NCBI RefSeq assembly: GCF_003334315.1
Contig: NZ_QOWR01000066.1
Length of the DNA: 23,614 nt
Source of the DNA: Escherichia coli
GTDB lineage: Bacteria; Pseudomonadota; Gammaproteobacteria; Enterobacterales; Enterobacteriaceae
Direction: 5' to 3' (one strand)
The number at the start of each line of letters is the position of its first letter. The stretch's first letter is position 1. The position numbers and the translations under genes were made by a program. A model generated the notes under the pieces. The model saw nothing but the letters and a program-made list of their open reading frames with translations, was not told where the DNA came from and made no database searches. This document shows positions 1 through 23,614 of the stretch, piece by piece.

Positions 1-77
1 CTTTTCAAAAGGGTATTTTGGCTTTGACATATTAGGGGCTATTCCATTTCATCGTCCAACAAAATGGGTGCAGTACA
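1..77. mobile_element. Terminal segment of an IS3-family insertion sequence (IS150-like), partial; element body lies beyond the window start
   Basis: The gltL reading frame that encodes KLLERVG...LSGGQQQRV from position 78 hits TAG at 33-35, and no frame of 1-77 encodes ABC-ATPase-like sequence. The segment ends ...GCAGTACA at 77 (reverse complement TGTACTGCACCCATTTTGTTGGACG...), a TG...CA terminus typical of IS3-family ends. The resemblance to the IS150 inverted repeat is from memory and unverified. Confidence 0.4.
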
Positions 78-449
78 AAACTGCTGGAGCGTGTCGGGCT
101 TTCTGCTCACGCCAATAAGTTTCCGGCGCAGCTTTCCGGCGGTCAGCAGCAGCGTGTGGCAATCGCTCGCGCGTTGTGTATGGATCCTATTGCGATGCTG
201 TTTGACGAACCGACATCGGCGCTGGATCCGGAGATGATCAACGAAGTACTGGACGTGATGGTGGAACTGGCGAACGAAGGAATGACCATGATGGTGGTGA
301 CCCACGAAATGGGCTTTGCCCGTAAAGTGGCGAATCGGGTGATCTTTATGGACGAGGGTAAAATTGTCGAAGACTCGCCGAAAGACGCTTTCTTCGATGA
401 TCCGAAATCGGACCGCGCAAAAGACTTCCTCGCGAAAATCCTGCATTAA
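78..449 (+). CDS. gltL: Glutamate/aspartate ABC transporter ATP-binding protein, C-terminal part only; 5' portion absent, apparently interrupted by the IS end at 1-77
   Basis: The frame encodes ...[50 protein letters not shown]... (ABC signature LSGGQ and Walker B, hhhhDEPT) and runs to a TAA stop at 447-449. The supplied ORF 156..449 is the same frame from an internal Met. Confidence 0.8.
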
Positions 450-456
450 TCACTCT

Positions 457-480
457 GGCGCGCATACCCAATTGCGCGCC
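457..480 (+). terminator. GC-rich hairpin downstream of gltL (GGCGCGCA-loop-TGCGCGCC); possible terminator, no clear U-tract
   Basis: An 8-bp perfect inverted repeat is seen directly in the sequence immediately after the gltL stop. Confidence 0.3.
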
Positions 481-566
481 ATCTCACGCTTTATCGTTTC
501 GCCCCTCGTATCTGTTACATCCTGGCGTTACCCTTGTCGCAAAGAAGCACACAACAAGGAGCAACA

Positions 567-1502
567 ATGGCACTGCCAATTCTGTTAGATTGCGACCCAG
601 GTCATGACGACGCTATCGCAATAGTTCTCGCCCTCGCCTCACCAGAGCTTGATGTCAAAGCAATTACGTCTTCCGCCGGAAACCAGACACCAGAAAAAAC
701 CTTACGCAATGTTCTGCGTATGCTGACCTTGCTTAATCGCACCGATATTCCGGTAGCAGGCGGCGCGGTAAAACCGTTAATGCGTGAGTTGATTATCGCG
801 GACAATGTGCACGGCGAAAGCGGTCTCGACGGCCCGGCATTACCGGAACCGACATTCGCACCGCAAAACTGTACGGCGGTAGAGCTGATGGCGAAAACGC
901 TGCGTGAAAGTGCGGAACCTGTCACCATTGTGTCTACCGGACCGCAAACTAACGTTGCCTTGCTGCTCAATAGCCATCCGGAACTGCATAGCAAAATTGC
1001 CCGTATCGTGATTATGGGTGGCGCTATGGGGCTGGGTAACTGGACGCCTGCGGCTGAATTTAATATTTACGTTGACCCGGAAGCGGCAGAAATTGTCTTC
1101 CAGTCAGGGATCCCGGTGGTGATGGCCGGTCTGGATGTTACTCATAAAGCACAAATCCACGTTGAAGACACCGAGCGTTTCCGCGCGATTGGTAACCCTG
1201 TTTCAACCATTGTTGCCGAACTGCTGGATTTCTTCCTCGAATATCATAAAGACGAAAAATGGGGCTTTGTCGGCGCACCACTGCATGACCCATGCACCAT
1301 CGCCTGGCTGTTGAAACCGGAGTTATTTACCTCTGTTGAGCGCTGGGTTGGCGTGGAAACACAGGGGAAATATACCCAGGGTATGACGGTTGTTGATTAT
1401 TATTATCTGACAGGCAATAAACCGAATGCCACCGTAATGGTCGATGTTGATCGTCAGGGCTTTGTTGATTTACTGGCTGATCGTCTGAAATTTTACGCTT
1501 AA
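567..1502 (+). CDS. rihA: Pyrimidine-specific ribonucleoside hydrolase RihA
   Basis: The ORF begins [22 protein letters not shown] (nucleoside hydrolase DxDxxxDD motif). The ATG at 567 is preceded by AAGGAG at 556-561 and gives 311 aa, matching the length I recall for RihA. The ORF track's 534 start is an in-frame upstream extension. Confidence 0.9.
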
Positions 1503-3315: not shown

Positions 3316-4758
3316 TCAGCTAAACAACATCGCGATTTTGCCGAGAGCATAACCTATCACCAGCACCGTTAAACTGATTTTGATAATGCTGGTAATGCTC
3401 TGTGGTTTTTCACCCTCATCATTTTTTTCTTCATGATTTTCAGGTGTTGGCTCATCGACATCTTCATCCTCCGGCTCGAGTTTCACTTTCGTCAAAAGCA
3501 TCCGGGTGACAATGGCCTCTAATTCTCCGCCTTCCAGCCTTGTATTAAGACGGGCCAGCATCTCTTGTTTCGGAAACGCTTCAAGTACTACCTGTTCCGC
3601 TACCCGATACAAATCCAGGAACGGTGAATCTTGCTCTGTCTCGCTACCGACTCTCGATTTCCACCACGCCCATGCTTTGCGCTTGAAGAATAACGACTCA
3701 ATAAACGATTGACCTAACGGCGATAATTTTCCGCTATGTAAAATCTCCGCCCATAACAGCCGCGTCCGGGCGCTCTCACCAGGAACATATTTCAGCGGTT
3801 GACCTTGCGCATCTACCATGCTCCGCGCTTCGATAACCATCACTAATAACGCGAAATAATCCGGGCAATGACGCTTGCTCCACTGCAACAACAAATTATC
3901 AGCTTGTGTAGATGGGTAACTTTCCCAGTACGCGCAGAGATCGGCAAGCAGGCTTTCCCCCTCGCCGCAGTACAAACGTTGTGCACACAAGTAATACCGG
4001 GCATCTTCGCTTTCTGGTTCTTCCGTTTGCCACTGTTGAGCGACAGGAATGAGTTCCGCCATACCTGTTTGCACCGAGCTGTACCAGCGCAACAGTTTGC
4101 GATGTAACTTTGCATCATCAGGAATTAACCACGGACCTTCCATCGCCAAAAACGCAGTGACATAGTCAGGATGGTAACGGCAGCAACGTTCCAGCGCGAA
4201 GTAATACTCAACAGTCTGGTTCTGCAACGCAATGGGATATTCCAGAAGGCTAAGGAAATCGAAACAATCACCAGCCTGAATGGCCTCAAGAAAAGCCTCC
4301 CTTTCTTCCTCATCCATTCCTTCGCTGTCATTAAATGAATGCCAGTTCAAACGCTCTGCCAGCAAAGAAGCACAATTTAATGAAAGATATCGCGCTTCTA
4401 TGGCGATTGCACACAGCGGCCAGCGTAATTGATCGACATCCTCCATGTTCCAGGTATTTAATTGCTGAATAAATTTCTGCCAGGCGGAAGGCTGAAAACG
4501 ATCACTTTCTGAATCCAGTAATGTCCTGAATGCACGTAGTATTTCATGTTCAGCGGCAGCATCTTTTTCTTCATCATCTGCTTCCTCGACAGGATTTACC
4601 GCCAGTCGCAGGGCCTCTTCATAGGCCTGGCGTAATGCTTTAAACCCTTGCGGATCGGTTTCGGGATGACACAACGGTAAGCGAGCAAGATAAGCCTGGC
4701 GGATAATGTCTATTTGCGTCGTGCTTTCAATTTCGAGGATTTGCCAACATGTTTTCAT
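3316..4758 (-). CDS. djlC: J-domain (DnaJ-like) C-terminally membrane-anchored protein DjlC, putative HscC co-chaperone
   Basis: 480-aa ORF. N-terminus [50 protein letters not shown] aligns to J-domain helices II/III with HPE in place of HPD. C-terminus ...[26 protein letters not shown] is a hydrophobic tail anchor. Its start overlaps the ybeU stop (ATGA). Confidence 0.85.
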
Positions 4759-6127: not shown

Positions 6128-7555
6128 TCACCCGAACAGATGGAGTATTTTCCCTATCAAACCAGCAAAGATAAAAATATAGAAAATAATTTTAATGATG
6201 CCCAGACAGCCTGGCCCACCATCGTCAACGGGCATTGGCTGCGGTTGCGGCTCCGGTTCAACAGTTTGCTTCTCGGTAAAATTCGCCGCCTGAATTAATA
6301 ATCGACGAATAATTAATGCTTCCAGTGGACAACGATTTTCTGCATCAAGGCGGCTCACAATCGGCATTAATGATTCTTCTGTAGGTTGGCAGGCCTGCAC
6401 TAATTGTTTGGCAACTAGATATAATGGCCATAAGGTATGTTCTGTATCACGCGTGAGTGAGATCCGCGGCTTACGTCCTTTGTGCAAAACCATCTCGACC
6501 AGTGAACGCCCCAGCGCAGAGAGTTTTTCATCGCTGAGTATTTCGTATAAATGAAAACGCGTACGGGCGCTGTCGCCGGGGACATAAAGTAGCGGTTTTC
6601 CCTGATCGTTAACCAGATCACGCGCTTCAATCATCATCACCAGTAATGGGTAATAATCGACCCGATGCTGACGGCATCATTGCAACATTAAAGCATCCGC
6701 CTGGGTGGAGGGATACTCGCGCCAGTAGTCACAAAGTTCTGCCAACAGGCTTTCGCCTTCTCCACAATAGACGCGTTGCGCGTATTCATAATAAGGCGCA
6801 TCTTCATTATCAGGTTCAGTTTCCCGCCATGACTGGGCGTAATCCAGAAGTTCGGGGATATCCAGGCGACCTGCGCTATACCAGCGGAGTAAATTTCTGT
6901 GCAGTTTTGCATCATCGGGGATAATCACTGCGCGATGTTGCGCTAAATACAATGTCAGCCATTGTGGATGCGATGACCAAATCCGAGCGAACATTTGGTA
7001 AAAATCGATGGTGTCATTTTGCACGGCAACGGGCAGATGCAGAATGGTCTGGAAGTTAAAAACATTCCCCTTCGCAATGGCATATAAAAAGGATTCCAGT
7101 TCTTCTTCGTCTATTTCCCCGGTATTTTCCTCCTGTAACCACCGCAATCTTTCTGCTAATAACACCACGCACTCGAAGGATAAATGGGCAGTGTTCATGG
7201 CGATTGTGCACAGCGACCAGCGTAATTCATCAATCTCCTCCATCGAGCAATAATTTAATTGCTGAATGAATCGCTGCCAGGCGGAGGGCAGAAAACGTTC
7301 ACTATCAGAGGCAAGTAACGCACGAAAGGCGAGCAGAATTTCATGTTCTGCTACCTCATATTCTTCTGGTTGCCAAACAGATTTAGCAGGCGACTGCGCA
7401 ATCCGTAGCGCCTCCTCATACGCCTGACGAAGTTGTTTAAAACCCTGCGGATCGGTTTCTGGATGAAAGGACGGTAACAGCGCCAGATAAGCGCGGCGGA
7501 TAATATCGACGTCAGTCGTTTCCTCTATATCGAGGATCTTCCAGCAATTTTTCAT
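6128..7555 (-). pseudogene. djlB: djlB, J-domain membrane protein paralogous to DjlC, interrupted by a single in-frame TGA
   Basis: ORFs 6677..7555 (292 aa, [39 protein letters not shown]...) and 6128..6640 (170 aa) are in the same frame, separated only by TGA at 6677-6679 (minus strand). Alignment with DjlC (…[27 protein letters not shown]…) against DjlB (…[26 protein letters not shown]…) places the stop where DjlC has Trp (TGG). Confidence 0.8.
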
Positions 7556-23410: not shown

Positions 23411-23614
23411 GGTGATGCTGCCAACTTACTGATTTAGTGTATGATGGTGTTTTTGAGGTGCTCCAGTGGCTTCTGTTTCTATCAGCTGTCCCTCCTGTTC
23501 AGCTACTGACGGGGTGGTGCGTAACGGCAAAAGCACCGCCGGACATCAGCGCTATCTCTGCTCTCACTGCCGTAAAACATGGCAACTGCAGTTCACTTAC
23601 ACCGCTTCTCAACC
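23411..23614 (+). mobile_element. IS1 insertion sequence, left inverted repeat and 5' portion; continues past the window end
   Basis: GGTGATGCTGCCAACTTACTGATTTAGTGTATGATGGTGTTTTTGAGGTGCTCCAGTG... is the canonical IS1 terminal inverted repeat and leader. Confidence 0.9.
23466..23614 (+). CDS. insA: IS1 InsA (transposition repressor / transposase N-terminal part), partial
   Basis: From GTG at 23466 the frame encodes [48 protein letters not shown], the InsA zinc-finger N-terminus. Confidence 0.85.

Follow-up and report, generated by a model that had tools for sequence, protein, structure and literature searches.

IS3-family elements transpose by a copy-out/paste-in route that passes through a circular intermediate (PMC3299598). 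One of them, IS150, has repeatedly used the same targets in experimental populations of Escherichia coli. In evolution-experiment data its target duplication is most often 3 bp, and insertions are listed at identical REL606 positions in independent long-term populations (2655781, 969836, 1270660 and 4415710), as well as at near-identical ones (1136030/1, 16990/75 and 3015771/3; PMC11708052, Table S1). Repeated IS150 insertions have also been recorded beside hok/sok loci and in pflB (PMC5419217, Table 3). The closest described counterpart of the locus studied here is the gltL::IS150 allele of E. coli B (REL606, BL21, BL21(DE3) and their derivatives). RefSeq annotates the 3′ part of gltL as 'missing N-terminus' in B-lineage and other genomes, and in BL21(DE3) the gene (ECD_00618) is listed as 'Interrupted by IS150', with the reactions GLUabcpp and ASPabcpp switched off in the metabolic model (PMC6150544, S10 Table). 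From this annotation and this listing the allele is already known, in the most widely used protein-expression strains; a search of literature main texts for gltL together with IS150 found nothing, the record standing in that supplement.

We analysed a 23,614-nucleotide stretch of E. coli DNA (contig NZ_QOWR01000066.1 of RefSeq assembly GCF_003334315.1; hereafter the window) that opens with the same arrangement. Element, nucleotide, orientation and AAA are those of the E. coli B allele, and identity to it is 100% through window base 1144. Unlike the described B allele, the window departs from the REL606 sequence at base 1145 and beyond (about 2.4% over 4.8 kb), keeps ybeU-ybeT-djlB, which the B lineage is without, and carries IS1 in ybeF at 23411. 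The main result is of a common kind: an insertion sequence has knocked out a transporter subunit that the cell can spare. What goes beyond the known allele is its spread outside the B lineage, a probable multiple origin and a recognisable asymmetric target motif of IS150.

The boundary between IS150 and gltL lies exactly at 77/78, base 77 being the last of the element: the window reads ...CATCGTCCAACAAAATGGGTGCAGTACA up to that base, then AAA CTG CTG GAG CGT GTC GGG from 78. By megablast against complete E. coli genomes, bases 1–77 matched IS150 at 77 of 77 positions (E 1e-31) in 2,838 of 5,426 genomes. The listed matches were all annotated 'IS3-like element IS150 family transposase', the single copy of K-12 MG1655 included, and the likeness is not due to chance. 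On the minus strand, bases 1–77 form the left (IRL, transposase-proximal) end of IS150 (Table 1); in REL606 the position corresponding to window base 30 is where the annotated RefSeq transposase CDS ends. Both ends of the element follow the TG...CA pattern: the window side reads ...GTGCAGTACA, and the opposite end in relatives begins TGTACTGACCCCAAAAAGTTGGACAG. As read from the sequences, about 19 of the first 25 positions agree between IRL and IRR, which are imperfect inverted repeats. Relatives with an identical junction carry an IS150 of 1,443 bp with a 'programmed frameshift' annotation and Pfam rve/HTH domains on its ORFs, of which the window holds 10 orfA codons. An Rfam scan of the window gave no matches.

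An earlier note, drawn up from the letters of the window, had taken this foreign terminus for an IS3-family, IS150-like one. It was right in this, in the TG end and in the inverted repeat it named, and the BLAST comparison it proposed returned IS150 at 100% across the 2,838 genomes. It had also held that the gltL frame cannot be extended upstream of about position 78 and that no frame of 1–77 is ABC-like; an in-frame TAG does lie at 33–35, and none of the three forward frames of 1–77, once translated, resembles an ABC ATPase. The presence of exactly 77 bp of the element at the start of the window might suggest an assembler overlap of k=77 at a contig end. We rejected this as a general explanation, since the opposite end has 204 bp of IS1, which makes the window edges arbitrary.

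Table 1 Features located in the window, with strand and the evidence or remark attached to each.
Feature	Position	Strand	Evidence or remark
IS150 left end (IRL)	1..77	-	100% identity, 2,838 genomes; terminus followed by 5′ untranslated region and orfA/insJ start
orfA (insJ), first 10 codons, MSKPKYPFEK	1..30	-	Translation; remaining element past the window edge
IS150 terminal inverted repeat TGTACTGCACCCATTTTGTTGGACG	inward from base 77	-	
Right-hand copy of the 3-bp target-site duplication, AAA = gltL codon 119 (Lys)	78..80	+	REL606 junctions, empty site
gltL 3′ fragment, codons 119–241 and stop	78..449	+	Translation; stop 447-449
djlC	3316-4758	-	480 aa; 1,452-bp (483-codon) gene in EC24.26
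djlB (J-domain protein)	6128-7555	-	In-frame TGA at codon 293, stop 6677-6679
IS1, first 204 bp (GGTGATGCTGCCAACTTACTGATTTAGTG...)	23411-23614		

The arrangement to the left of base 1 can be read in relatives. All ten examined copies with the junction have a 357-bp 5′ part of gltL (codons 1–119) directly beyond IS150, with AAA on both sides. REL606, NCTC10537, 'strain C', EC24.26, EC-07 and both 'DH5alpha'-labelled assemblies share the layout of gltL 5′ part (357 bp), IS150 (1,443 bp) and gltL 3′ part (372 bp), and SCPM-O-B-12142 has the same layout with an IS150 copy of 1,442 bp. The two parts less one duplication (357 + 372 − 3) make 726 bp, the length of the intact gltL of AHM9C68I, whose empty site reads CTGAAACTG. 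In REL606 the order is gltI, gltJ, gltK, gltL 5′ pseudogene, IS150, gltL 3′ pseudogene and rihA. Its left junction reads ...GAAAAAGCCCTGAAA/TGTACTGACCCC... and its right junction ...GTGCAGTACA/AAACTGCTGGAG (slashes mark the boundaries), which gives the target duplication CTGAAA/IS150/AAACTG. The REL606 element (1,443 bp) has 0 differences from the K-12 copy, and the full-length copies compared are all identical with the sole exception of that in SCPM-O-B-12142 (L007 6609-8050), which is one base shorter and has a different transposase protein accession.

The earlier note had proposed extending the sequence upstream to find the other gltL fragment and a 3-bp duplication. Run in genomes with an identical junction, both checks came out as it expected, with the 357-bp fragment beyond the 1,443-bp element and AAA flanking it. 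The window itself holds one AAA (78–80), and the left side of its source genome is reconstructed from these relatives; read in this way, IS150 almost certainly sits in gltL as a simple insertion. The element (IS3 family, 1,443 bp) would have transposed by copy-out/paste-in between gltL codons 119 and 120 with duplication of AAA, and IRR in the source strain would abut ...GCCCTGAAA.

Two other accounts of the junction deserve weighing. It could be an artefact of the window or of its assembly, a chimeric join at a repeat that hides an intact gltL; the window does start inside a multicopy repeat, the usual break point of draft assemblies, and none of the complete genomes in the collection is 100% identical to the whole window 1-23614. 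We consider this extremely improbable, given that the identical junction occurs in 44 independently finished genomes, among them the long-studied REL606 and BL21(DE3) with a proper 3-bp duplication, that public assemblies contain a fusion ORF across the opposite junction on at least 1,000 contigs, and that the near flanks of EC24.26, EC-07 and SCPM-O-B-12142 are identical to the window's. Alternatively, IS150 might border a deletion, an inversion or an IS–IS recombination here, with the gltL 5′ part (perhaps gltIJK) lost or moved. The left side falls outside the window, and adjacent deletions without target duplication make up 14 of 68 IS150 events in the long-term evolution experiment (PMC11708052, Table S1). 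Yet 10 of 10 examined copies are simple insertions with AAA on both sides, as are those of the three natural isolates with the window's near-flank haplotype, and a rearrangement is very unlikely, if marginally less so than an artefact. A simple insertion is the reading used below.

Bases 78–449 are gltL both by identity, matching the intact gene of AHM9C68I over the common part, and by position in the order gltI-gltJ-gltK-gltL-rihA; window 78–600, comprising the gltL 3′ part and rihA, is 100% identical to RefSeq genomes. The translated fragment holds the signature LSGGQQQR (132–155), Walker B and the H-loop (VTHEM) and ends in ILH before the stop, and it is without Walker A, a start codon and a ribosome-binding site. 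No single polypeptide carries the complete set of ABC motifs: in relatives Walker A (GPSGSGKST) lies on the separate 5′ fragment, whose 128-aa product, encoded by the fusion ORF mentioned above, consists of GltL(1–119) and nine IS-encoded residues, CTDPKKLDS, before a stop. The earlier note's inference that gltL is insertionally inactivated is sound, since the 5′ part stops after these nine residues and the 3′ part has no start before GTG 156, the first in-frame start after the TAG and one that lies downstream of the signature.

An ABC importer requires an ATPase with Walker A and signature in one polypeptide. To judge from its sequence, gltL here is a disrupted gene and not a functional member. 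The insertion would divide GltL, with Walker A and the Q-loop on one half and the signature, Walker B and the H-loop on the other, and because of this split the importer GltIJKL is presumed to be off, left without a functional ATPase while gltI, gltJ and gltK upstream and rihA downstream would stay intact. Alternative glutamate/aspartate carriers are GltP, GltS and DctA. BL21(DE3), which has the same allele, grows rapidly on L-glutamate (PMC6150544), so the loss is tolerated and its phenotype masked by other carriers. We infer that GltIJKL is inactive in the source strain, at little growth cost.

To place the allele among sequenced strains, a 100-bp probe across the junction was used. Of 5,426 complete E. 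coli genomes, 44 covered it in full, 42 of them at 100% identity and the two 'DH5alpha'-labelled assemblies at 92%. Carriers are mostly B derivatives and also include NCTC10537, 'strain C' (cow's milk), EC-07 (fish meat), EC24.26 (bovine) and SCPM-O-B-12142. Window 1–600 is 100% identical to REL606, BL21, BL21(DE3), C41/C43, NEB Express, ATCC 11303 and other B-lineage genomes. The divergence from base 1145 on excludes REL606/BL21 as the identity of the window, and 88 mismatches plus one indel over 23.4 kb exclude EC24.26. The window is a phylogroup-A background other than the B lineage: many phylogroup-A isolates with intact gltL match it at 100% over bases 78-23614 (for example AHM9C68I, the IS1 in ybeF included), and EC24.26, EC-07 and SCPM-O-B-12142 combine its near flanks with the IS150 insertion. 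The allele is not private to the B lineage: bovine, fish-meat and collection isolates carry it, as does a mislabelled 'DH5alpha' stock, and for this reason it cannot alone call B/BL21 contamination.

Left of the insertion point, AHM9C68I (L006 7647-8372) differs from the IS-bearing haplotypes (compared with EC24.26) at 160 and 202 bp, which places a recombination breakpoint no farther than about 160 bp from the IS or at the IS itself. The flanks around gltL in 'strain C' (NZ_CP029371.1) are identical to those of REL606 over the roughly 4 kb left and 3.4 kb right that were compared, and the two have in common a rhomboid-protease gene between lnt and gltI and a frameshifted djlC beside ybeR; 'strain C' seems to belong to the B lineage and not to E. 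coli C.

Does the wider distribution reflect one insertion or several? Between −503 and +1067 relative to the IS, no difference separates the B-type haplotype from the window/EC24.26-type one; the two diverge only outside this interval. Their sequences fit a single insertion that was later set in different backgrounds by recombination, and no independence is claimed for this pair. Compared with the A-type, the gltL of the two assemblies labelled 'DH5alpha' (NZ_CP026085.1 and NZ_CM135829.1; 4.83 Mb, sequenced in Peking and Qingdao) carries differences 6, 7 and 22 bp to the left of the junctions and 4, 15, 18, 21, 27, 30, 33 and 42 bp to the right. Once the IS and one AAA are removed, this allele matches E. 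coli W, LY180 and many other B1 genomes at 100% over 1,600 bp. The gltL-region alleles of these assemblies are of the E. coli W/B1 type and not of K-12, and the assemblies look like a mislabelled strain circulating between laboratories. An assembly artefact is unlikely for this B1 carrier, the second assembly, from another city, having the same structure. In the draft genome GCA_052586725.1 the left junction lies on yet another haplotype.

Importing the IS into the B1 allele by homologous recombination would take crossovers within 3–5 bp of the element on both sides; on the alleles compared, it is much more likely that the element transposed independently a second time, into this same nucleotide and orientation. 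This comparison argues for at least two independent IS150 insertions at the gltL site, in A and B1-type alleles, and gltL::IS150 probably arose more than once. The contrary account has all carriers descend from one ancient insertion, later spread and re-flanked by homologous recombination, with neither hot spot nor recurrence. The long identity shared by the B-type and window/EC24.26-type flanks is what recombination around one event gives, and the full-length IS copies compared are all identical. We nevertheless think a single origin doubtful. B1-type carriers already differ from the A-type 4–7 bp from both junctions, their IS-excised allele matches E. coli W/B1 genomes completely, an exchange would depend on the two closely placed crossovers, and IS150 does reach identical coordinates in independent experimental populations (PMC11708052, Table S1). 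Recurrent insertion, the favoured account, turns attention to the target itself.

A short asymmetric motif appears to guide where IS150, the element with the highest activity in the Lenski long-term lines, inserts. Metagenome contigs were scanned for the IRR end of the element, which yielded 111 stretches with 64 distinct flanks in 34 clusters; the gltL insertion was absent among the 111. GCCYC ends 3–5 nt from IRR in 45 of the 64 distinct natural flanks. The exact pentamer is present in 19 of the 34 unrelated clusters against a background of 0.27%, and a version with at most one mismatch in 23 of 34 against 4.1%. On contigs with both IS150 ends a single base separates the motif from the 3- or 4-bp duplication that comes next, with no mirror motif on the IRL side. 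We propose as the IS150 consensus a purine-rich stretch, GCCYC, N and the 3–4 bp duplication, which would always lie on the IRR side. The largest cluster of flanks (27 of 64 distinct ones) consists of hok/sok-like 3′ stem-loops of the form ...AGAGGC...N25-30...GCCTCGTGG/IS, and at several unrelated IS150 sites GCCYC is the 3′ arm of a hairpin.

Experimental hot spots fit this pattern (hokC, GCCCC-G-AGT; kps, GCCTC-A-CTT; cycA, GCCCG-T-TTG; yfiH, GTCTC-A-TTT). The experimentally recurrent sites (hokC/nhaA, pflB, cycA, yfiH and kps) were hit at identical coordinates in independent populations, and they show the same pattern as gltL, G-C/T-C-Y-C plus N plus duplication, with similar matrix scores. 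They differ in that they are laboratory events in one strain, whereas the gltL recurrence is between natural or laboratory lineages across phylogroups, and in that the gltL B1 allele, unlike them, matches the core motif poorly (3/5). In the A allele (GAAAAA-GCCCT-G-AAA) the motif lies on the IRR side, as predicted, and 4 of 5 pentamer positions match; the B1 allele reads GCATT-G-AAA, with 3 of 5.

Under a cluster-weighted matrix the A-allele site ranks 3 of 1,426 positions and orientations in gltL, 8 of 6,410 in the operon and 91 of 79,048 in 39.5 kb; the B1-allele site ranks only 17 of 1,426 in gltL by the weight matrix. Support from the motif depends on how redundancy is handled: an unweighted matrix, which is dominated by hok-like flanks, puts the gltL site in the top 1.6%, and the cluster weighting, adopted after that unweighted result, in the top 0.12%. 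IS150 would prefer GCCYC-N-(3–4 bp duplication) beside its right end, and gltL reads GCCCT-G-AAA in that register and orientation. Site choice in gltL is probably not random. The motif explains the orientation and why the site is favourable, yet it covers recurrence at the exact nucleotide only in part; selection for transporter loss, or further determinants, may contribute. On balance we lean towards gltL codon 119 being a sequence-determined IS150 hot spot that was hit independently in at least two phylogroups (A and B1-type), with a strong, asymmetric consensus that would also explain the predilection for hok/sok loci and the coincidences in the long-term evolution experiment. If confirmed, the motif would help to separate mutational hot spots from selection in parallel IS150 insertions.

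In the A allele the insertion point falls in the loop of a 7-bp inverted repeat, AAAGCCC-N20-GGGCTTT (window 96-102; left flank L001 3624-3630), and the opposite-strand site beside its right arm ranks 1 of 1,426 as an IS150 target in gltL. The hairpin was rejected as a necessary target determinant, because it is not conserved in the B1 allele, which was also hit. IS911-like targeting, in which the target resembles the IS150 ends, gave no convincing match by eye.

The IS150 of K-12, adjacent to hokA and assigned to the IS150 group of the IS3 family, is the described element closest to the one found here. Bases 1–77 are identical to it, as is the full copy of relatives over 1,443 bp, and the likeness extends to the TG...CA ends, the orfA/orfB arrangement with its programmed −1 frameshift and the rve (DDE) domain. 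The K-12 copy lies at a different location and is without a recognisable duplication (GTT on the left, TAC on the right), in contrast to the clean AAA of the gltL copy. The missing direct repeat of this copy (L002 1135-2577) suggests a later rearrangement or an adjacent deletion there. The flanks of the K-12 copy recur nine times in metagenome contigs.

At the far end of the window, IS1 occupies the last bases (Table 1), so that the stretch is bounded by insertion sequences on both sides; in AHM9C68I, ybeF is broken by IS1A and bears a 'missing N-terminus' annotation. The djlB gene carries an 'internal stop' annotation in AHM9C68I and is intact in EC24.26, EC-07 and SCPM-O-B-12142. Against EC24.26, djlC of the window shows a single 9-bp gap by blastn, and an ungapped comparison runs out of register at 3524. 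B-lineage genomes have a frameshift in djlC and lack ybeU-ybeT-djlB; the djlC/ybeU-ybeT-djlB cluster of chaperone paralogues is structurally variable between close relatives.
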